Source of the DNA: a virus
Lineage: Duplodnaviria > Heunggongvirae > Uroviricota > Caudoviricetes
Strand: one strand, 5' to 3'
DNA: 15,755 nucleotides
Virus record (IMG/VR): IMGVR_UViG_2690316188_000011
Shown: positions 298-12,206 of the stretch, piece by piece
How the letters are laid out: each line of letters begins with the position of its first letter
How positions within the stretch are numbered: the stretch's first letter is position 1
Position numbers and translations under genes: made by a program
The notes under the pieces: model-generated
The model's input: the letters and a program-made list of their open reading frames with translations, nothing else
What the model was told of the DNA's origin: nothing
The model's database searches: none

Positions 298-323
<26 letters not shown>
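1..323 (+). CDS. nu1: Terminase small subunit gpNu1, 3' portion (gene wraps the circular junction; 5' portion at 15448-15755)
   Basis: Frame enters at the window edge with no start codon. Translation (...[55 protein letters not shown]...EYIEQSG) is the C-terminal half of lambda Nu1 as I recall it. Bases 1-85 are identical to 15671-15755. The stop at 321-323 lies 26 nt inside the next gene, as in lambda. The ORF-track entry 99-323 is an internal Met of this gene. Confidence 0.95.
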
Positions 324-4004
<3,681 letters not shown>

Positions 4005-4024
<20 letters not shown>

Positions 4025-5324
4025 TCTCCCGCATATTGCCAGCATGGCCTTTAATGAGCCGCTGATGCTTGAACCCGCCTATGCGCGGGTTTTCTTTTGT
4101 GCGCTTGCAGGCCAGCTTGGGATCAGCCGCCTGACGGATGCGGTGTCCGGCGACAGCCTGACTGCCCAGGAGGCACTCGCGACGCTGGCATTATCCGGTG
4201 ATGATGACGGACCACGACAGGCCCGCAGTTATCAGGTCATGAACGGCATCGCCGTGCTGCCGGTGTCCGGCACGCTGGTCAGCCGGACGCGGGCGCTGCA
4301 GCCGTACTCGGGGATGACCGGTTACAACGGCATTATCGCCCGTCTGCAACAGGCTGCCAGCGACCCGATGGTGGACGGCATTCTGCTCGATATGGACACG
4401 CCAGGCGGAATGGTGGCGGGGGCATTTGACTGCGCTGACATCATCGCCCGTGTGCGAGACATAAAACCGGTATGGGCGCTGGCCAACGACATGAACTGCA
4501 GTGCAGGTCAGCTGCTTGCCAGTGCCGCCTCCCGGCGTCTGGTCACGCAGACCGCCCGGACAGGCTCCATCGGCGTCATGATGGCTCACAGTAATTACGG
4601 TGCTGCCCTGGAGAAACAGGGTGTGGAAATCACGCTGATTTACAGCGGCAGCCATAAGGTGGATGGCAATCCCTACAGCCATCTTCCGGATGACGTCCGG
4701 GAGACACTGCAGTCCCGGATGGACGCAACCCGCCAGATGTTTGCGCAGAAGGTGTCGGCATATACCGGCCTGTCTGTGCAGGCTGTGCTGGATACCGAGG
4801 CTGCAGTGTACAGCGGTCAGGAGGCCATTGATGCCGGACTGGCTGATGAACTTGTTAACAGCACCGATGCGATCACCGTCATGCGTGATGCACTGGATGC
4901 GCGTAAATCCCGTCTCTCAGGAGGACGAATGACCAAAGAGACTCAATCAACAACTGTTTCAGCCACTGCTTCGCAGACTGACGTTACTGACGTGGTGCCA
5001 GCGACGGAGGGCGAAAACGCCAGCGCGGCGCAGCCGGACGTGAACGCGCAGATCACCGCTGCGGTTGCGGCAGAAAATAGCCGCATTATGGGGATCCTCA
5101 ACTGTGAGGAGGCTCACGGACGCGAAGAACAGGCCCGCGTGCTGGCAGAAACCCCCGGTATGACCGTGGAAACGGCCCGCCGCATTCTGGCAGCTGCACC
5201 ACAGAGTGCACAGGCGCGCAGTGACACTGCGCTGGATCGTCTGATGCAGGGGGCACCGGCACCGCTGGCTGCAGGTAACCCGGCATCTGATGCCGTTAAC
5301 GATTTGCTGAACACACCAGTGTAA
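4005..5324 (+). CDS. C: Capsid assembly protease / minor capsid protein gpC (GTG start)
   Basis: The ORF-track frame 3858-5324 contains the lambda gpC sequence from VTAELRNLPHIASMAFNEPLMLEP onward. GTG at 4005 is in frame and preceded by GAGGAGGAG (3992-4000); this gives a 439-aa product, the length of lambda gpC. The 5' end overlaps the B stop at 4022-4024. Confidence 0.9.
4719..5324 (+). CDS. nu3: Scaffolding protein Nu3, nested in frame within the 3' part of C
   Basis: In lambda, Nu3 is translated from an internal in-frame start in the last third of C. An in-frame ATG (MDATRQMFAQKVSAYTGL...) is present at 4719, the equivalent position. Not distinguishable from C by sequence alone. Confidence 0.55.
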   Translation: MDATRQMFAQKVSAYTGLSVQAVLDTEAAVYSGQEAIDAGLADELVNSTDAITVMRDALDARKSRLSGGRMTKETQSTTVSATASQTDVTDVVPATEGENASAAQPDVNAQITAAVAAENSRIMGILNCEEAHGREEQARVLAETPGMTVETARRILAAAPQSAQARSDTALDRLMQGAPAPLAAGNPASDAVNDLLNTPV

Positions 5325-5333
5325 GGGATGTTT

Positions 5334-5666
5334 ATGACGAGCAAAGAAACCTTTACCCATTACCAGCCGCTGGGCAACAGTGACCCGGCACATACGGCAA
5401 CCGCGCCCGGCGGATTGAGTGCGAAAGCGCCTGCAATGACCCCGCTGATGCTGGACACCTCCACCCGTAAGCTGGTTGCGTGGGATGGCACCACCGACGG
5501 TACTGCCGTTGGCATTCTGGCGGTTGATGCTGACCAGACCAGCACCACGCTGACGTTCTACAAGTCCGGCACGTTCCGTTATGAGGATGTGCTCTGGCCG
5601 GAGGCTGCCAGCGACGAGACGAAAAAACGGACCGCGTTTGCCGGAACGGCAATCAGCATCGTTTAA
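5334..5666 (+). CDS. D: Head decoration protein gpD
   Basis: 110-aa product from ATG 5334 ([43 protein letters not shown]...[11 protein letters not shown]) matches lambda gpD with about three substitutions. RBS AGGGA upstream. The ORF-track start at 5328 adds two residues absent from lambda D. Confidence 0.95.
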
Positions 5667-5684: not shown

Positions 5685-5708
5685 AAGGCCGCCTGTGCGG
5701 CTTTTTTT
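5685..5708 (+). terminator. Hairpin plus T-run in the D-E intergenic region (attenuator/terminator-like)
   Basis: GCCGC (5688-5692), loop CTGT, GCGGC (5697-5701), then TTTTTTT (5702-5708). Sits in the 55-nt D-E gap, the same spacing as lambda. Confidence 0.4.
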
Positions 5709-5721
5709 ACGGGATTTTTTT

Positions 5722-5997
5722 ATGTCGATGTACACAACCGCCCAGCTGCTGGCGGCAAATGAGAAGAAATTTAAGTTTGATCCGCTGTTTCTGCGTCTCT
5801 TTTTCCGTGAGAGCTATCCCTTCACCACGGAGAAAGTCTATCTCTCACAAATTCCGGGACTGGTAAACATGGCGCTGTACGTTTCGCCGATTGTTTCCGG
5901 TGAGGTTATCCGCTCCCGTGGCGGCTCCACCTCTGAATTTACACCGGGATATGTCAAGCCGAAGCACTTAGCATGGCTTTCTGAGGCTTTCGTGTAG
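5722..5997 (+). pseudogene. E: Major capsid protein gpE, truncated: 83 N-terminal codons then unrelated sequence and a stop
   Basis: ATG 5722 gives MSMYTTAQLLAANEKKFKFDPLFLRLFFRESYPFTTEKVYLSQIPGLVNMALYVSPIVSGEVIRSRGGSTSEFTPGYVKPKH, colinear with lambda gpE (341 aa in lambda). After codon H83 (ends 5966) the frame reads LAWLSEAFV-stop, which is not E sequence. Downstream DNA is AT-rich and leads into the integrase gene. Confidence 0.85.
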
Positions 5998-6129
5998 TTG
6001 CTGGTTTTTACACTTAATCTTTTGATAATAAAGAATAAGTTTATCTGGTGCTTTCACTGAATTTTCCTCGTTATCTGTGTGTTGCAATCATCTCTGTATT
6101 GCAGCTTGTATTGCTTTTTGGGGCTAAAA

Positions 6130-7365
6130 ATGGCTGGCGAGAACAAACTGAGCGACAAAGCGCTTAAAGGATATCTGGGGAAACCCAGAGAAAAGCAGAT
6201 CACCATTGCTGATGGAAAGGGGCTTTCTATTCGTGTGAGTACTAAAGGGGCTGTGAGCTTTGTTTTCTTCTACAGGTTAGCAGGTGGCCGGGCTGCTCCG
6301 GTCTGGCTAACGTTGGGTAAATATCCTGATATGTCACTCAAACAGGCAAGGGAAAAGCGCGACGAGTGCCGTGGTTGGTTGGCTGACAAACGTGATCCGC
6401 GTATCCAGATTAAGATTCAGGCTGAAGAACGCTTAAAGCCGGTCACAGTGGAGGATGCACTAAATTACTGGTATGAAAATTACTGTAAGGTGCGTCGTAA
6501 AACTCATGCTGTAACGCTTGGCAGATTTCGAAAGCATATCTTTCCCTATATCGGTCATTTGCCCGTAAATGACACTCACCTATATGAATGGCTGGACTGT
6601 TTTGACCGAATTAAACGTAATGCACCAGTTATGGCGGCGTATGTTTTTTCTGACACTAAATTAGCTCTTCGTTTTTGTCGGGTACGCCAGTACGCGACGT
6701 GTGATGCTTTAAAGGATTTGCGCATGAGTGATGTGGGGCAGATTGCAGGTAAGCGGGATCGGGTTCTGGATGAAGCCGAACTCGGCCAGCTCTGGAAGGC
6801 AATTTTTGTCGAGCCTGATTTAAAACTAATGTCTGAATACACGCGAAAAATGTTTGTGCTTTGTACAGTATTTGGATGTCGAATGAGTGAAGCCCGATTA
6901 TCAGAATGGAGCGAATGGGATCTCGAAAGTTGGGTTTGGACTGTACCAAAAGATCACTCAAAAACTGGTGTTGAAATCGTCAGACCAGTACCTGAAATTC
7001 TACGACAGTGGGTAACGGATGTTCACGAAGAGACAAAACATACTGGTTATGTGCTGGGAAGTCTGCGAATTAGAGAAAGCGTAAGCAAGATTGGGGGGAA
7101 AATCGGTAAACGTTTGGGCCATGAAAAACAATGGTCACTACACGACCTTAGAAGAACGCTATCTACTCATCTAAGTGATCTCGGTGTTGAATTTTATGTA
7201 GTAGAACAACTGTTAGGCCATGCGCTACCTGGCGTGGCAGGTGTTTACAACCGGAGTAAGTTTATGGCTAAAAAACTGGATGCTCTGGAACTCTGGACTA
7301 CATATCTCAATAGCATCGCAGGTGCTGATTCAAAAGTGACAATCCTCAAACAAAAGGCTGGTTAA
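6130..7365 (+). CDS. int: Tyrosine recombinase / integrase, P4-family (PICI / CP4-57-like)
   Basis: Catalytic signature residues are visible: R in GCRMSEARL, H-x-x-R in SLHDLRRTL, H in LLGHALPG, Y in GVYNRSKF. Basic N-terminal arm-binding-like domain (MAGENKLSDKALKGYLGKPREKQITIADGKGLSIRV). Start placed at ATG 6130 rather than the upstream ORF-track start at 6079. Confidence 0.9.
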   Translation: MAGENKLSDKALKGYLGKPREKQITIADGKGLSIRVSTKGAVSFVFFYRLAGGRAAPVWLTLGKYPDMSLKQAREKRDECRGWLADKRDPRIQIKIQAEERLKPVTVEDALNYWYENYCKVRRKTHAVTLGRFRKHIFPYIGHLPVNDTHLYEWLDCFDRIKRNAPVMAAYVFSDTKLALRFCRVRQYATCDALKDLRMSDVGQIAGKRDRVLDEAELGQLWKAIFVEPDLKLMSEYTRKMFVLCTVFGCRMSEARLSEWSEWDLESWVWTVPKDHSKTGVEIVRPVPEILRQWVTDVHEETKHTGYVLGSLRIRESVSKIGGKIGKRLGHEKQWSLHDLRRTLSTHLSDLGVEFYVVEQLLGHALPGVAGVYNRSKFMAKKLDALELWTTYLNSIAGADSKVTILKQKAG

Positions 7366-7366
7366 C

Positions 7367-7588
7367 ATGAAAAAAATGGCAATTGTCGATAAAAAGGGTC
7401 TGGAGTACATTCCTAATATCGATCGTATGATCCGTGAGAAAGAATGTCGGGAGCTAACCACTCTTGCGAACAGCACACGCTGGAAGCTGGAGAAGGAAGG
7501 AAAATTTCCTAAGCGGATCAAGATTGGTTCCACTGCTGTTGCATATCGTCTTTCAGAAGTGCAGGCATGGATTAGGGGAGAGTGGTAA
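7367..7588 (+). CDS. alpA: AlpA-family HTH regulator / excisionase-like protein
   Basis: 73 aa; core ELTTLANSTRWKLEKEGKFPKRIKIGSTAVAYRLSEVQAWI fits the AlpA/MerR-like winged-HTH pattern. Lies immediately after int (stop TAA 7363-7365, start 7367), the usual int-alpA arrangement of Gram-negative PICI/P4-like elements. Confidence 0.8.
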   Translation: MKKMAIVDKKGLEYIPNIDRMIREKECRELTTLANSTRWKLEKEGKFPKRIKIGSTAVAYRLSEVQAWIRGEW

Positions 7589-7607: not shown

Positions 7608-7634
7608 AATCCTATGGGGTAAACCCATAGGATT
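7608..7634. terminator. Hairpin between convergent genes (candidate bidirectional terminator)
   Basis: AATCCTATGGG (7608-7618), loop GTAAA, CCCATAGGATT (7624-7634): perfect 11-bp stem. Lies between the alpA stop (7588) and the stop of the leftward 449-aa gene (7640). No strong T-tract on either side, so terminator function is uncertain. Confidence 0.4.
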
Positions 7635-7639
7635 TGAAA

Positions 7640-8989
7640 TCACTTAAATTCAAATACGTGCGTAGTTGATGAGATTATATAATTAGGTGGTAAGTATTGA
7701 ACTATTTCTCCATCTTCTTCAAAAATATGAATAACTCTTGGGAATAATTCAGGGCGTATAGGATTTAATGCCTTCGGATTATGAAACATGTATATTGCTG
7801 TACACCATGGTTCTTGATATGAAGGTGCATTGACAAGAGCAGTAAAAGGCATTGGGGTACAGCCTTCATCAGTTTTAATACCTCTAACGATGGATTTGAC
7901 ATTTTTTTGTTCAATCCCTGCCACTACTCCCATCCTATCAAATTTTGGGATGGTGGCATGTGTCGCAAGTAATATGGCTGAGACATTCTCATTTTTATTA
8001 GAGCCGAAAAAATTAGATTGTATACTTCGATTTTCAAATAAATGTTGTTCAATTTTACTTCCAGAATCCATATCTACACCATACAGATAGCTTTGTAGTG
8101 CTGGCATTGATATACTCATCGAAAATCTGCGTGAGTAATCGTGTAAAGCAATAATGAAAGGCTTTCCTTTTGTATGATCTAGTTCCCAATAGCATAATTT
8201 TAAGGGTTCAGGTTTATGCCTAACTTTCTTTAATAGAGTGCGGGCAAATTTGAATGGCATTTGTTCTTTTACATATCTCTGAAGATCTTCTACTGCCTCA
8301 TGATCAAGTATCAATTTCTCGGTAGGTTCCTCTTGTTCTGCAACTGTGGCAGCTTCTACAGCAATATCAATGCCATTTTTTGAGATAATATAATCAGGTT
8401 GAGCATAATCTCTGCATATTACGAAATCCATTTCGTAGAAAACTGCGTTTAGATAAAGTTCGAATAAGCGAGAGTTAAATGAAGCACTCTGGAAATCTCT
8501 GATGAATATTCCATCAGGATCTTTACACCAATAAGCTAACTCTTGCATAACAATAAATGCAGGATAGTGTTTGGGTTCCTCAAGTAGCATTCTTAGATAA
8601 ACGTTTTTTTTATGTTCTGGAACTTTGGCTAGGAATATTGAAAATGCCGACTCTGATTCGTCACCCTGTATAAAACAACCGTTCTTGTGTAGTGATAATA
8701 GCTCTGGTATGGCTTTTTCCATATCAGTAATTAAATCATCTTTAGATTCACGGGATACAATTACTTTAATCGCTCTAAATTTTTTATCTAAATCCCTACC
8801 TAGAAATATAGCGTTGTAATCATTATCTATTTTACAAAAAACAATTGTTGCTAAGATCGTGACATCATCCTTTATAAATTTGAACCAACAGATTTCCTCC
8901 GAAAAGGTTTTTACGTATGGTGTACGACCATAGAAAAATACATCAAATTGTTCTTTACTGATTTCTAGCATTTTGTGACTTGTTGTCAT
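7640..8989 (-). CDS. Hypothetical 449-aa protein, no family recognised; candidate defence/exclusion cargo
   Basis: Long uninterrupted minus-strand ORF in a visibly AT-rich segment. ATG at 8989 is preceded by AAGGA about 8 nt upstream. Starts 23 nt after the upstream RHH gene stop on the same strand (operon-like). I recognise no catalytic motif with confidence. Confidence 0.7.
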   Translation of the reverse strand: MTTSHKMLEISKEQFDVFFYGRTPYVKTFSEEICWFKFIKDDVTILATIVFCKIDNDYNAIFLGRDLDKKFRAIKVIVSRESKDDLITDMEKAIPELLSLHKNGCFIQGDESESAFSIFLAKVPEHKKNVYLRMLLEEPKHYPAFIVMQELAYWCKDPDGIFIRDFQSASFNSRLFELYLNAVFYEMDFVICRDYAQPDYIISKNGIDIAVEAATVAEQEEPTEKLILDHEAVEDLQRYVKEQMPFKFARTLLKKVRHKPEPLKLCYWELDHTKGKPFIIALHDYSRRFSMSISMPALQSYLYGVDMDSGSKIEQHLFENRSIQSNFFGSNKNENVSAILLATHATIPKFDRMGVVAGIEQKNVKSIVRGIKTDEGCTPMPFTALVNAPSYQEPWCTAIYMFHNPKALNPIRPELFPRVIHIFEEDGEIVQYLPPNYIISSTTHVFEFK

Positions 8990-9012: not shown

Positions 9013-9207
9013 TCAGCCTTTAGGTGTTATTCCTTGTTTTATTAGTTCGGCACGAGCCAGTTCTTTTAGCCAGTTACCTAAGCTCATCCCTTCTTTGGCA
9101 GCGACATTAACCATTTGTTCTTTTAATTCTGGGTTAATACGGACTTGGAATGCTGGTGCTTTACCTGCACCTTTCGGTTGTTTATCACGTTGAATGATAG
9201 TTGACAT
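9013..9207 (-). CDS. Ribbon-helix-helix (Arc/MetJ/CopG-like) DNA-binding protein
   Basis: 64 aa, MSTIIQRDKQPKGAGKAPAFQVRINPELKEQMVNVAAKEGMSLGNWLKELARAELIKQGITPKG. An alternating beta-strand segment (PAFQVRINP) followed by two short helices fits the RHH fold pattern. First gene of the leftward operon; a perfect inverted repeat abuts its start codon. Confidence 0.7.
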   Translation of the reverse strand: MSTIIQRDKQPKGAGKAPAFQVRINPELKEQMVNVAAKEGMSLGNWLKELARAELIKQGITPKG

Positions 9208-9249
9208 GTGTGTACCTATTGCTTAGTATGATTCTTGATAGGTACACAC
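9208..9249. promoter_or_regulatory. Operator-like perfect 12-bp inverted repeat in the divergent promoter region
   Basis: GTGTGTACCTAT (9208-9219) and ATAGGTACACAC (9238-9249) are exact reverse complements, 18 bp apart. The left arm directly abuts the RHH start codon. An extended -10-like TGcTATATA lies at 9265-9273, oriented rightward. Confidence 0.5.
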
Positions 9250-9346
9250 CTTATCATGTTTTATTGCTATATAACAACGCCCTGCAGTGCTCGCAACACA
9301 TACAGGGCGTCTAACCACCAACGATAGCAACAGTATCGAGGTAGCT

Positions 9347-9550
9347 ATGAGAAATCATACCACACACCCGCAAGGGCGGGATTCGCACAACCTGAATAAA
9401 TACATCTGGCGTTTTATCGCCCTGAGCACCGCACAACCACGCGTAATACACATCGAGGCCGCCAGCGAACAGGAAGCCCGCCAGCAATCCCCAACTGGCT
9501 ACGTGATGATATTCGCCGCCCGTATTCGTCAGGAGGTGTGCCGTGCTTAA
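9347..9550 (+). CDS. Hypothetical small protein (67 aa), weakly supported
   Basis: ATG 9347 preceded by GAGG (9338-9341). Its stop overlaps the next gene's start. No recognisable domain. A 98-aa ORF on the opposite strand (9311-9607) overlaps it and cannot be excluded. Confidence 0.3.
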   Translation: MRNHTTHPQGRDSHNLNKYIWRFIALSTAQPRVIHIEAASEQEARQQSPTGYVMIFAARIRQEVCRA

Positions 9551-9728
9551 AACCTTCCGTGTATTTGCCCGAGCTGTTAACCCACTGGGCCACACAATTG
9601 GTATCACTCAGAACGTGAAGGCTGTTAATGTTCAGACGGCTATTGCTGCGGTGAGAAGCGAATCATCAGAATATGGCTTATCACAAGTCATTATTTCAGC
9701 AGTGTATGAATTAAAAGAGGTGCATTAA
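9543..9728 (+). CDS. Hypothetical small protein (61 aa, GTG start)
   Basis: GTG 9543 preceded by AGGAGG (9531-9536) at 6-nt spacing. Stop TAA 9726-9728 overlaps the next ATG (TAATG). Confidence 0.45.
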   Translation: MLKTFRVFARAVNPLGHTIGITQNVKAVNVQTAIAAVRSESSEYGLSQVIISAVYELKEVH

Positions 9729-9919
9729 TGCAGGAAATCACATTACACGAAGCCGCTGAACGTGCGCACCAGACAGAAATTATTTGCCGCCTTCTTGAGG
9801 TATACCCGAACAAAATTACAGATGCTGATATATCCGCGCTGGCGAGCCTACTGGCGCGCCTTTCGGGAAGTGTCGCTAGTTTCCTGATTGAGGAAGAAAG
9901 TAAGCTGGTGGGGGATTAA
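9728..9919 (+). CDS. Hypothetical small protein (63 aa)
   Basis: ATG 9728 preceded by AAAGAGG (9714-9720). Followed immediately by the next ORF (TAA then ATG at 9920). Confidence 0.5.
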   Translation: MQEITLHEAAERAHQTEIICRLLEVYPNKITDADISALASLLARLSGSVASFLIEEESKLVGD

Positions 9920-10141
9920 ATGAATACAGAACGGGAAGTCTTTTTTAAATTGTTAGCATGTGCAGAAAGTTCATTAACTTTAAATAATTCAGCAAAAGCA
10001 ATATTAAATATGTGGCTTGATTGCATAAATGACAATGAAGATGCAAATATTGCTTATGGCCTGTTGTCACTTATTGATGAATCAGCAGAAAAACTCAATG
10101 ACGCAATAAATAGTGCCCTGCTATCAAATAAGTCGAGTTAA
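9920..10141 (+). CDS. Hypothetical small acidic protein (73 aa), markedly AT-rich gene
   Basis: ATG 9920 preceded by GGTGGGGGA (9907-9915). Composition visibly more AT-rich than its neighbours. Product looks helical and acidic (…LIDESAEKLNDAINSALL…). Confidence 0.5.
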   Translation: MNTEREVFFKLLACAESSLTLNNSAKAILNMWLDCINDNEDANIAYGLLSLIDESAEKLNDAINSALLSNKSS

Positions 10142-10158
10142 GTCGAGGAATAAATAAT

Positions 10159-10458
10159 ATGGAAATGAAAAATTCTGGCTTTATTGCCAGCGGCCCCGCT
10201 CGGCCTGAATTTATGAACGGCGATATTTACCGCGATAAATACGGCGGCACGGTAACGATTAAAGGCGTGGCAGAACGGCGCATCACTTACCGCCGTGAGG
10301 GGTATAGCTATGACTGCGTGATGCCTGTTTATCAGTTCCGGCGTGATTTTTCCCTGGTATATGCCGCACCCCGCAGTAAGCCCATCAGCAGGGAAAAAGC
10401 GCGGGGAAACATCCAGAAAATGAAAAGCATGATTAACGCATTCAGGGGCAAAAAATGA
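10159..10458 (+). CDS. Hypothetical 99-aa protein, translationally coupled to the primase gene
   Basis: ATG 10159 with GAGGAA (10145-10150) upstream. Stop TGA 10456-10458 overlaps the primase ATG 10455 (ATGA). Confidence 0.6.
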   Translation: MEMKNSGFIASGPARPEFMNGDIYRDKYGGTVTIKGVAERRITYRREGYSYDCVMPVYQFRRDFSLVYAAPRSKPISREKARGNIQKMKSMINAFRGKK

Positions 10459-12206
10459 AACTGGCACCGAACTTAAAAAAACAGCCACGCGACAGACTGA
10501 CAGAGGTAATCATCTTTGCAGGTAGTGATGCGTGGAGCCATGCGAAAGAGTGGCGGGAATGGGCGGGTAAACATATTGCCGCCGACGATGTGCCGCCTGT
10601 CGTGCTGGCTGATGAGCAACTGAAAAATATCACCGATTACCGGATCATTGATGAAGATCGTCAGTGTGTGCGTGTTTACCGCGCAGGACATATCACAGAG
10701 CACAGCATGACGCAGATTGTTACGTTACTGGCTGTGGCTGGAGTGAAGACCGTACACGAATACGCGGGGATTACTGACACCAGCCCAGTGGATTTATCCG
10801 AGCAGTTGCCGCGACTCAAAGAGGAATGCGAGCGTGGGGAAAGTCTGGTGCTTAATCTTCCGACGAAGCAAAAGGCGCAACTTTCACAGATGGCAGACAG
10901 TGAACGTGCACAACTACTTGCCGATCGCTTTGATGGTGTGTGTGTTCATGCAGAAAGTGAAATCGTCCACGTATGGCGCGGCGGGGTATGGTGTCCGGTC
11001 AGCACAATGGAGCTGAGCCGCGAAATGGTGGCGATCTATTCAGAGCACAGGGCCACGTTCAGCAAACGTGTAATCAATAACGCCGTGGAAGCGTTAAAAG
11101 TTATTGCCGACCCCATGGGGGAGCCGTCCGGTGATTTGCTACCGTTCACTAATGGTGTGCTTAACCTGAAAACGGGGGAATTTTCTCCGCACTCGCCGGA
11201 GCACTGGAGCACCACGCACAATGGCATTGAGTACACGCCACCAGTAGCAGGGGAAAACATCCGCGATAATGCGCCAAATTTCCATAAATGGCTTGAACAT
11301 GCTGCAAGAAAAGACCCGCGTAAGATGATGCGTATATGTGCCGCGTTATACATGATTATGGCGAACCGCTACGACTGGCAGATGTTCATTGAGGCCACCG
11401 GAGACGGGGGAAGCGGTAAGAGTACATTTACCCATATTGCCACCCTGCTTGCTGGCAAACAGAACACCGTAAGCGCGGAGATGACATCACTCGATGATGC
11501 AGGAGGGCGCGCGCAGGTTGTCGGGAGTCGTCTTATCGTCCTTGCCGATCAGCCGAAATATACGGGGGAAGGCACGGGCATCAAGAAAATCACGGGAGGC
11601 GATCCCGTTGAAATTAACCCGAAATATGAGAAGCGATTCACGACGATAATAAGGGCGGTGGTACTGGCAACCAATAACGACCCGATGATCTTTACCGAAC
11701 GGGCCGGAGGTGTGTCACGCCGTCGGGTGATTTTCCGGTTCGACAACATTGTAAGGGAGGACGAAAAAGACAAGGAATTACCGGAAAAGATAGCGGCAGA
11801 AATCCCCGTAATTATCCGCCGCTTGCTGGCTAATTTTGCTGCCCCTGAAAAGGCACGGGCTTTATTACTGGAACAGCGTGACGGTGATGAAGCTCTGGCA
11901 ATAAAGCAGCAAACGGATCCGGTTGTTGAGCTTTGCGCGGCGCTGGAGTTTCTGGAGGAAGCTCGTGGGCTAATGATGGGCGGTGGTGGTGACACCGTGA
12001 AGTACACGACCAGAAACAGCCTTTACCGTGTCTATATGGCCTTCATGGCATACACAGGAAAGGGGAAATGTTTGAGCGTGAATGAGTTCGGAAAGGCTAT
12101 GAGGTCAGCGGCGAAAGTTTACGGATATGAATATATTACGCGAAAAGTTAAGGGAGTCACGCAGACCAACGCAACGACTACTGATGATTGCGATGCGTTT
12201 TTATAA
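10455..12206 (+). CDS. Replication initiator: primase / SF3-helicase fusion (P4 alpha / D5-like NTPase)
   Basis: 583 aa. Walker A P-loop GDGGSGKST in the sequence ...FIEATGDGGSGKSTFTHIATLLAG..., with a Walker-B-like hydrophobic stretch plus acidic residue (RLIVLADQP) downstream. An iteron array follows the stop, as in P4-type and PICI pri-rep/ori modules. Confidence 0.85.
   Translation: MKLAPNLKKQPRDRLTEVIIFAGSDAWSHAKEWREWAGKHIAADDVPPVVLADEQLKNITDYRIIDEDRQCVRVYRAGHITEHSMTQIVTLLAVAGVKTVHEYAGITDTSPVDLSEQLPRLKEECERGESLVLNLPTKQKAQLSQMADSERAQLLADRFDGVCVHAESEIVHVWRGGVWCPVSTMELSREMVAIYSEHRATFSKRVINNAVEALKVIADPMGEPSGDLLPFTNGVLNLKTGEFSPHSPEHWSTTHNGIEYTPPVAGENIRDNAPNFHKWLEHAARKDPRKMMRICAALYMIMANRYDWQMFIEATGDGGSGKSTFTHIATLLAGKQNTVSAEMTSLDDAGGRAQVVGSRLIVLADQPKYTGEGTGIKKITGGDPVEINPKYEKRFTTIIRAVVLATNNDPMIFTERAGGVSRRRVIFRFDNIVREDEKDKELPEKIAAEIPVIIRRLLANFAAPEKARALLLEQRDGDEALAIKQQTDPVVELCAALEFLEEARGLMMGGGGDTVKYTTRNSLYRVYMAFMAYTGKGKCLSVNEFGKAMRSAAKVYGYEYITRKVKGVTQTNATTTDDCDAFL

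Follow-up and report, generated by a model that had tools for sequence, protein, structure and literature searches.

A chain of small genes leads into the replication gene

We examined a run of five small open reading frames (ORFs) at positions 9347-10458 of a 15,755-nucleotide stretch of tailed-virus DNA (Caudoviricetes; IMG/VR record IMGVR_UViG_2690316188_000011), referred to at its full length as the window. The element carrying the run is a helper-embedded Gram-negative phage-inducible chromosomal island (PICI) inserted in a lambdoid prophage, within its major capsid gene, and the five ORFs stand directly in front of its replication gene. The original prediction, drawn up from the letters of the window, had proposed the coordinates of the five ORFs; all were correct, and an independent run of a chain-finder on the window returned the same five ORFs together with the start of the replication gene. 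The cistrons, with the Shine-Dalgarno-like site that precedes each of them, are as follows:

9347-9550, plus strand: ORF1, 67 aa, ATG start, the Icd-like leader cistron of the operon; site GAGG at 9338-9341
9543-9728, plus strand: ORF2, 61 aa, GTG start, a compact beta-beta-alpha-beta miniprotein; site AGGAGG at 9531-9536
9728-9919, plus strand: ORF3, 63 aa, phrog_1478; site AGAGG at 9716-9720
9920-10141, plus strand: ORF4, 73 aa, AT-rich, of a hypervariable family, phrog_2196; site GGGGGA at 9910-9915
10159-10458, plus strand: ORF5, 99 aa, a DUF4222 protein and orthologue of RgdR; site GAGGA at 10145-10149
10455-12206, plus strand: replication gene, labelled 'primase', 583 aa; site AGGGG at 10444-10448

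The junctions between these cistrons are tight. ORF1 and ORF2 overlap by 8 nt at GTGCTTAA (GTG at 9543, TAA at 9548-9550), ORF2 and ORF3 overlap by 1 nt at TAATG (9726-9730), ORF3 and ORF4 abut with TAA followed by ATG and no nucleotide between them (9917-9922), and ORF5 overlaps the replication gene by 4 nt at ATGA (10455-10458), so that, as had been claimed, the run feeds directly into the replication gene start. These are the four junction types listed originally, a list from which the 17-nt gap between ORF4 and ORF5 (TAA at 10139-10141, ATG at 10159) was missing. All six starts have a purine-rich Shine-Dalgarno-like site 4-9 nt upstream, a feature that was also scored by the chain-finding script, and the claim that each ORF has a site of its own is thereby borne out.

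The 17-nt spacer is unusual, being shared by 12 junctions only among the related loci, and most junctions between a gene of the ORF4 family and DUF4222 have a gap of +5. An 8-bp direct repeat, AAGTCGAG, is found here at 10130-10147 in two copies that lie 10 bp apart and straddle the ORF4 stop in the ORF4/ORF5 spacer; recombination at the edge of a cassette may have left it as a scar.

The five ORFs are conserved protein-coding genes

Some part of the region 9208-10458 was matched in 1,936 of 5,426 complete Escherichia coli genomes, i.e., in about a third of them, and the same five coding sequences are annotated by RefSeq in both near-identical and diverged E. coli islands. The annotated examples keep a constant order, in which alpA is followed by a Bro/eta-like gene (or what is left of it after truncation), then by a small ribbon-helix-helix gene in divergent orientation, an Icd-like gene, one to four small hypothetical genes, a DUF4222 gene and a replication protein, the latter belonging to the primase family or being a DUF927 protein or a RepA helicase. 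About 240 loci were gathered from IMG/VR and metagenomes by means of a conserved leader motif; these scans were far more productive than a pattern scan of genome contigs with one genome per species, which gave two relevant loci. In 167 unique loci, the chain consists of three to seven small ORFs with the Icd-like ORF first, one to five variable ORFs after it and DUF4222 last. The 729 junctions within these loci comprise 517 overlaps (mostly -4, -8 and -11) and 178 gaps of 0-10 nt, and in 162 of the 167 loci the chain enters the replication gene through ATGA. Conservation of the ORFs in related elements, which had been named as a check on the chain, is thus present, and the chaining is conserved with it. 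The exact combination of ORFs seen in the window occurs in about 21 loci. In about 17 related loci (families F7 and F19), adjacent small ORFs have merged into one of 142-155 aa, as is expected where single-base insertions or deletions can join overlapping cistrons.

All five ORFs have PHROG matches (E-values of 1e-28 to 1e-45). The ratio of nonsynonymous to synonymous substitution rates (dN/dS), calculated pairwise against the window, is 0.25-0.29 for ORF1, about 0.2-0.4 for ORF2, about 0.1-0.2 for ORF3, about 0.5 for ORF4 and 0.15-0.47 for ORF5. All five ORFs are shown by these data to be conserved protein-coding genes under purifying selection. Compared with the island of strain EDL933, the amino acid identities are 46% for ORF1, 97% for ORF2, 73% for ORF3, 28% for ORF4, 74% for ORF5 and 25% for the replication protein; judged by these values, the operon is a mosaic gene by gene. 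In summary, the ORF chain is the ordinary, RefSeq-annotated early operon of a known satellite family.

ORF1 is Icd-like and ORF5 is an orthologue of RgdR

The original prediction recognised no motif in any of the five products and suggested profile searches of each of them; when run, these searches assigned two of the five, the first and the last, to known families. ORF1 matches the NCBIfam Icd-like model NF033153 (70.9 bits against a cutoff of 25, E = 6.5e-20), with residues 19-62 covering the full 48-residue model. The same model is matched at 7.8e-21 by residues 85-132 of P4 ORF137, which lies in the eta/kil region, was historically annotated as 'cI', and overlaps epsilon by 8 nt, just as ORF1 overlaps ORF2. 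Because of the common Icd-like domain and the identical overlap, we regard ORF1 as the counterpart of the short Kil-type product, i.e., of the C-terminal part of the P4 eta/'cI' ORF. The 'transcriptional repressor' label of the ORF1 family in PHROG probably stems from the old P4 'cI' annotation. By analogy with P1 Icd and P4 Kil, ORF1 may, once expressed, transiently block host cell division.

ORF5 belongs to the Pfam family DUF4222 (PF13973; 83.2 bits against a gathering threshold of 27, E = 9e-24, residues 16-67) and is 74% identical over all 99 residues to an EDL933 protein that has R20-G-D and every other residue listed for RgdR/ECs1581 (PMC3378721). In ORF5, residues 20-22 are N20-G21-D22 in place of the RGD tripeptide, which is reported to matter for LEE and type III secretion activation (PMC3378721). 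RgdR of enterohaemorrhagic E. coli (EHEC) O157:H7 activates LEE1, represses motility and binds DNA non-specifically (Flockhart et al., PMC3378721), and its gene is located in OI-51/CP-933C (PMC3378721). The EDL933 locus has a chain running from an Icd-like ORF to DUF4222 and on to a DUF927 gene, beside roxA. The matching gene content and sequence suggest that OI-51/CP-933C is the capsid-forming PICI (cf-PICI) EcCIEDL933; a statement to that effect was not found in the literature consulted for it. An AlphaFold2 model of ORF5 has a five-stranded Tudor/SH3/KOW-like barrel followed by a basic C-terminal helix (predicted local distance difference test score, pLDDT, of 84-90 in the core). By analogy, ORF5 may be an accessory of replication or transcription that binds DNA non-specifically or binds RNA polymerase. 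A possible link of ORF5 to P4 orf151 (L258 7440-7895; residues 8-52), with 31% identity to the DUF4222 core at a BLASTP E-value of 0.02 in a six-protein search, was rejected, since neither Pfam nor the family hidden Markov model (HMM; E = 0.26) confirmed it.

The replication protein downstream has D5_N, DUF5906 helicase and Pox_D5 C-terminal domains. It is 41% identical to residues 321-762 of P4 alpha and aligns only from its own residue 137, which means that it is without the primase N-domain that alpha has. Its N-terminal segment of about 100 aa (MK.APN.K.QPR...EVIIFAGSDAW; within residues 1-136, 10455-10870) is common to sister islands that have a RepA-family helicase or a DUF927 protein instead. 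This segment always follows DUF4222, which suggests that the two may work together.

The middle ORFs are a mosaic, fast-turning-over segment

ORF2 is predicted to fold into its compact beta-beta-alpha-beta structure with a pLDDT of 93.5. Structurally, it comes closest to PurS and the ribosomal protein eL20, which marks the fold as generic. Its distribution is very narrow, and the protein is 97% identical between the islands of the window and of EDL933. ORF3 matches phrog_1478 at 2.5e-34, is 73-76% identical to its counterparts in EDL933 and 13E0780, and has a homologue in Edwardsiella as well (L014). ORF4 matches phrog_2196 at 1e-28. Searches of Pfam, NCBIfam and PADLOC gave no informative matches for ORF3 or ORF4. 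Two pairs were considered as paralogues and rejected: the hhalign probability for the ORF4 family (F3) against the ORF3 family (F12) was 1.1%, and a match of the Icd-like family of ORF1 (F1) to the ORF2 family (F13) was absent from the hhalign hits listed.

ORF4 is indeed the most AT-rich of the five ORFs, as had been pointed out (GC content of 0.32 compared to 0.43-0.55 in the other four), and it had been taken for an inserted cassette on that ground. Its slot is the most divergent among the syntenic ORFs, with 22-28% amino acid identity to the EDL933 and 13E0780 alleles compared to 73-97% for the flanking ORFs, which fits the idea of a cassette. However, ORF4 and these alleles are members of one family, which comprises 54-55 unique sequences in 97 loci, where it occupies the same slot, usually directly upstream of DUF4222. 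The GC content of the family has a median of 0.39 and a range of 0.32-0.42, compared to 0.54 for the Icd-like genes; ORF4 of the window is the extreme of its family, and its nearest non-identical relative is 34% identical. Since low GC is common to the whole family, it is not evidence of a recent insertion in the window. ORF4 therefore occupies a hypervariable slot and is not a one-off insertion, and ORFs 2-4 together fill a mosaic, fast-turning-over middle segment, probably as strain-specific accessory miniproteins.

It had been proposed that such ORFs hold derepression, anti-repressor or helper-interference functions, and on this view ORFs 2-4 especially would be factors like P4 epsilon, with ORF4 as a recently acquired AT-rich cassette. 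The position is right, as the corresponding P4 region holds epsilon and ORF2 sits exactly where epsilon does, with the same 8-nt overlap with the preceding ORF. The mosaic, fast evolution of the middle ORFs, with ORF4 as the most divergent slot, is also what would be expected of genes in conflict with a helper or host. The sequences themselves speak differently. No resemblance of ORFs 2-5 to P4 epsilon, orf151 or orf106 was confirmed by BLASTP, Pfam or HMM searches; no ORF matched the epsilon family PF25738 in Pfam, and when compared with P4 epsilon by BLASTP and by HMM the ORFs scored E > 0.4. None of the five ORFs matched Ant/Bro proteins or gave a hit among the PADLOC defence models. ORF1 and ORF5 have other identities, the fold of ORF2 is the generic one described above, and the low GC of ORF4 is a family trait of a slot held in 97 loci. 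Gram-negative PICIs are, moreover, induced via AlpA and not by derepressing the helper (PMC6092414), AlpA-dependent induction having been shown for EcCICFT073 and EcCIEDL933 only. We consider this proposal unlikely; an action of ORFs 2-4 on the helper or host ('interference') is possible but unsupported.

A different view of ORFs 2-4 would make them coupling spacers, whose function is to carry ribosomes to the replication gene while the peptides themselves do nothing. How many middle ORFs there are (one to five), and which they are, varies freely while the chained junctions persist, fusions between neighbours occur in some cases, and ORF2 is very narrowly distributed, all of which would fit. 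Against it stand the dN/dS values of 0.2-0.55 for ORFs 2-4, the confident structure of ORF2 and its near-identity between islands whose neighbouring genes are 46-74% identical, and the Shine-Dalgarno site that each ORF has for itself. We regard functionless peptides as improbable, and retain ORFs 2-4 as probable accessory miniproteins.

The leader of the operon carries a candidate repressor-operator pair and a predicted antisense RNA

The region upstream of ORF1, together with the first codons of ORF1 itself, holds the following features:

9013-9207, minus strand: ribbon-helix-helix gene (Arc/HicB/YlcI-like), 64 aa, co-transcribed leftward with the PD-T7-1 gene
9201-9229, plus strand: predicted sigma-70-like promoter of the operon, TTGACA, 17 nt, TAGTAT, 10/12 matches
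9208-9219 and 9238-9249: perfect inverted repeat of 12 bp, GTGTGTACCTAT / ATAGGTACACAC, on either side of the -10 hexamer, a candidate ribbon-helix-helix operator
9268-9348, minus strand: predicted cis-antisense RNA, about 80 nt long and complementary to the 5′ untranslated region, Shine-Dalgarno site and AUG of ORF1
9275-9312, minus strand: intrinsic terminator with a GC-rich hairpin (9277-9310), tail GTTGTTATATAG
9354-9362, minus strand: predicted extended -10 promoter element of the antisense RNA, TGGTATGAT, inside ORF1 codons 3-6 and about 45 nt to the right of the hairpin

The spacer between the ribbon-helix-helix gene and ORF1 is 139 bp long. The 64-aa protein has weak matches to HicB and Arc in Pfam, to an Arc-like repressor family in PHROG and to YlcI_YnfO_N in NCBIfam, and its homologues are 32-67% identical. 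A divergent small ORF occupies the same position in 161 of the 167 unique related loci. The TTGAC of the -35 hexamer is kept in the alignment of relatives, and where a relative has another ribbon-helix-helix allele, the repeat in the corresponding position differs too. The ribbon-helix-helix protein is a candidate repressor of the operon promoter. Positions 9226-9245 in the promoter region and 9341-9360 around the ribosome-binding site (RBS) and AUG of ORF1 are 80% complementary over 20 nt; this pairing is probably due to chance, since the left arm lies in sequence that is specific to this ribbon-helix-helix allele and not conserved between relatives.

The hairpin at 9275-9312 is conserved with compensatory changes, 98.4% of cells being paired and the covariation score exceeding that of 500 of 500 shuffles. 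Its fold is more stable on the minus strand in 73 of 74 unique variants (median of -23.4 compared to -17.6 kcal/mol), with 103 G-U pairs on the minus strand compared to 16 on the plus strand, and a T-rich tail is found on the minus strand only (median of 6/11 compared to 3/11). For the copy in EDL933, the scan tool independently reports a terminator on the minus strand that has 15 pairs and ends in the tail GCTTTTTTAA. A strand-specific terminator acting on the minus strand is strongly supported by this comparative evidence.

To the right of the hairpin, TGnTATGAT or TGnTATAAT occurs at the -10 element in about 120 of 145 unique sequences, and about 20 more, of the EDL933 type, keep TATGAT preceded by TGGTA or TGTTA. 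In all, TATGAT or TATAAT is present in 143 of the 145, and the hexamer is altered in two only (TATTAT and TACGAT). The element lies within a block, ORF1 codons 1-18 (9347-9400), that is conserved at all three codon positions (third-position minor-allele frequency of about 0.03 compared to about 0.16 downstream) and whose length is that of a promoter (-60 to +1). These 18 codons also include a small GC hairpin, CCCGC-AAGG-GCGGG at 9366-9379; its equivalent in EDL933 (L002 3879-3899) is called as a terminator-like hairpin on the plus strand, within the Icd-like ORF, a hint of attenuation that depends on translation, by analogy with P4.

The conserved -10 element and the terminator bound the predicted antisense RNA, which folds with a minimum free energy of -37.4 kcal/mol (z = -5.35). 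No Rfam family scored above threshold for it, the best match being RF00043 (R1162 antisense RNA), which is not significant at 16.5 bits against a gathering score of 55 (E = 0.96). A search of the literature for a small RNA at this locus or for the leader sequence found nothing, and the cis-antisense RNA of about 80 nt is predicted here as a previously undescribed minus-strand transcript.

The hairpin and leader could also be read on the other strand, as an immunity RNA of the P4 CI/P1 C4 type that is processed from the operon transcript. P4 CI RNA lies on the operon strand, upstream of the Icd-like coding part of the same ORF, and the stem is followed by ...ACCACCA..., which in our view resembles substrates of RNase P. 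C4/isrK RNAs are present in some PICIs (PMC10111431). Neither C4/CI nor isrK RNA was found in the window or nine relatives, at the gathering score or at E<=10 with a 176-nt query, and both were found in P4 as a positive control (74.9 and 60.8 bits). The strand asymmetry of the hairpin points the same way, as about 60 of 387 stem cells are G-U wobbles that become A-C mismatches on the plus strand, the minus fold is the more stable one in nearly all variants, and the T-rich tail is confined to the minus strand. A plus-strand immunity RNA at this place is very improbable, and the hairpin is taken below as the terminator of the antisense RNA. That the true left-end gene is the opposite-strand ORF at 9311-9607 (98 aa), named as an alternative in the original prediction, and that ORF1 is spurious has a negligible chance of being right: it is the longest ORF at the left end, but it is not conserved, with stops in 61 of 89 unique homologues and a dN/dS of 1.06 in the minus frame compared to 0.27 for ORF1 over the same bases, and ORF1 is the one that matches NF033153.

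A proposed switch for the replication operon

We judge it fairly probable that the five ORFs form the early, replication-proximal operon of the helper-embedded PICI and that this operon is controlled by the antisense RNA and the ribbon-helix-helix protein as follows. The operon would be transcribed from the promoter at about 9201-9229, possibly with read-through from the AlpA-activated promoter as well, and the ribbon-helix-helix protein would repress the plus-strand promoter via the inverted repeat. The antisense RNA, about 80 nt in length, would be made constitutively, starting at the extended -10 element in the first ORF1 codons and ending at the 9275-9312 terminator, and it would pair with the RBS and AUG of ORF1, thereby blocking initiation. 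As every cistron would be translationally coupled to the previous one, blocked translation of ORF1, together with transcriptional polarity, would keep the replicon silent. The silence would be lifted when AlpA-dependent, helper-induced transcription outruns or titrates the antisense RNA, whereupon ORF1 may transiently block cell division, ORF5 may play its accessory role and ORFs 2-4 would act as accessory miniproteins.

Several points weigh against this reading. The promoter and the operator are consensus matches only. The tail of the hairpin in the window is moderately T-rich, and the scan tool does not call the window's own copy a terminator. Part of the conservation of the -10 element could reflect Asn-His codons, since the element lies inside coding sequence and has no recognisable -35. 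Coupling is deduced from the geometry of the junctions, and independent initiation is possible because each ORF has its own Shine-Dalgarno site. For the two named products, the Icd-like assignment of ORF1 gives nothing direct on its function within a PICI, and the phenotypes of RgdR (LEE1 activation and motility) are known from over-expression and deletion in EHEC (PMC3378721). An R20N change lowered the activity of RgdR in stimulating type III secretion (PMC3378721), and the window protein has NGD at this place.

More tentatively, and with less confidence than an even chance would express, we suggest that a large clade of Gram-negative PICIs, found in about a third of complete E. coli genomes and including the EcCIEDL933-type cf-PICIs and the capsid-embedded helper-embedded PICIs (HE-PICIs), has replaced the P4-type CI/C4 immunity by the antisense RNA and ribbon-helix-helix switch, which would then be the 'missing' maintenance repressor; as a corollary, RgdR would primarily be a replication or transcription accessory of PICIs with a Tudor-like fold. 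If this were true, the translational chaining of the operon would let a single checkpoint at the Icd-like leader silence everything down to the replication initiator. The founding paper states that it is 'unclear' whether a global repressor exists for Gram-negative PICIs (PMC6092414), and the antisense RNA, the ribbon-helix-helix gene and the operator offer a concrete candidate for how these islands stay silent. RgdR, a regulator of type III secretion and colonisation in EHEC, appears here as a universally conserved gene coupled to the PICI replication initiator, which reframes its native role, and the hypervariable middle ORFs provide a defined place in which to seek factors of satellite-helper or satellite-host conflict. 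The chain itself was already annotated; what is added here are the identities of ORF1 and ORF5, the recognition of the AT-richness of ORF4 as a family trait and the predicted control module.

Relation to P4 and to immunity and copy-control systems

The left operon of P4 (vis/orf88, eta/kil, epsilon, orf151, orf106, alpha) has the same order as the window, in which AlpA is 37% identical to Vis. The two share an ORF that ends in an Icd-like domain, the 8-nt overlap to the next ORF, a chain of small ORFs and a D5-type replication protein, and on this comparison the operon is best seen as the evolutionary counterpart of the P4 left operon. In P4, too, the leader ORF is a site of immunity control (PMC10111431). 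The differences lie in the parts. P4 has CI (C4-type) RNA and an isrK/seqA element, at 8507-8420 and 8692-8615, neither of which was found in the window, whereas the window has a divergent ribbon-helix-helix gene and a predicted minus-strand RNA that P4 does not have. The P4 genes epsilon, orf151 and orf106 are unrelated to ORFs 2-5, and the Icd-like ORF of the window is, unlike that of P4, short (67 aa) and without the Phage_ASH N-domain.

The proposed logic is that of P1 c4-icd-ant, P22 mnt|arc-ant with sar, and P4 CI/kil, applied here to a replication gene. In P1 c4-icd-ant and P22 mnt|arc-ant, the translation of a small leader ORF (Icd in P1) is needed by the downstream gene. In these immI-type regions, an antisense RNA masks the RBS of the leader, and P22 adds a divergent ribbon-helix-helix repressor. 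These regions control an antirepressor, whereas the controlled product in the window would be the replication protein. The predicted RNA of the window would be encoded in cis opposite the RBS, like P22 sar, and not processed from the same strand, as in the C4 type.

The countertranscript RNA of R1162/RSF1010 (RF00043), an element over the RBS of a replication gene (the repA helicase), offers a further parallel. Among the Rfam models, it alone gave an end-to-end alignment with 9275-9348, with the non-significant score given above, and is a lead only. The alignment consists of the hairpin, then ...CUAACCACCAA..., then a stem with the Shine-Dalgarno site and AUG, and a replication operon begins shortly downstream of the element in both cases. 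A RepA-family helicase is used by some sister PICIs, and it is the repA helicase gene whose RBS the R1162/RSF1010 RNA masks. A search of plasmid DNA returned integrated PICI copies only and no IncQ plasmid.

RgdR (ECs1581) compares with the 99-aa ORF5 as a member of the same DUF4222 family, at the same spot directly upstream of the replication gene, with 74% identity and R20 in place of N20. The chain from an Icd-like ORF to DUF4222 and on to a rep gene is also annotated in EDL933, in CFT073-type islands and in hundreds of others. In the published descriptions of PICIs (PMC10111431, PMC6092414), the small ORFs, the ribbon-helix-helix gene and an antisense RNA are not discussed.

The operon lies in a helper-embedded PICI

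The left part of the window consists of lambda-like head gene ORFs (298-5666; terminase, portal, protease and decoration), which are followed, just before int, by a truncated capsid ORF of 100 aa (5695-5997). The genes between this ORF and the control region are:

6079-7365: int, tyrosine integrase with Arm-DNA-bind_3 and Phage_integrase domains
7367-7588: alpA, PF05930 at 2.7e-15, co-oriented with int and directly downstream of it
7640-8989, minus strand: PD-T7-1 anti-phage defence gene, 449 aa, full-length PADLOC PD-T7-1 match at E = 1.3e-153 and a weaker PD-T7-5 match

Near-identical E. coli islands are flanked by capsid pseudogenes annotated as 'major capsid protein, missing C-terminus' and 'missing N-terminus'. 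The right junction of the island lies beyond the window. In a 99%-identical relative, genes for a single-stranded DNA-binding protein (SSB), a major capsid protein, a head decoration protein and terS are annotated downstream of pri. The element thus has int and alpA at its upstream end, a co-oriented integration in the capsid gene, and a replication zone followed by late capsid-type genes, which places it among the PICIs and, within them, the HE-PICIs. The same layout, with int and alpA upstream and pri/rep, SSB, capsid, decoration and terS genes downstream, is that of Gram-negative PICIs, of HE-PICIs of the Eco567.11capE type and of the cf-PICI EcCIEDL933. HE-PICIs share with the window the co-oriented integration in a lambda E-like capsid gene, and this configuration, with the site E:Phage_cap_E, was described by Tommasini, Mageeney and Williams (PMC10111431). 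A search of the phage collection for DNA and protein similarity returned essentially none.

The window copy differs from other PICIs in the PD-T7-1 gene between alpA and the operon, and in nothing essential. This gene and the 64-aa ribbon-helix-helix gene form a co-oriented leftward cassette in that interval, and since homology to most relatives starts only at about 9275, the interval between alpA and the operon is a hotspot for cargo. In one relative that is 98% identical (L003), the PD-T7-1 gene is broken into two ORFs. A perfect 12-bp stem at 7608-7635 (AATCCTATGGGG ... CCCCATAGGATT type) is located between the stops at which alpA and PD-T7-1 converge and has no T-run on either strand; it may restrict transcription that runs on from the alpA promoter into the operon.

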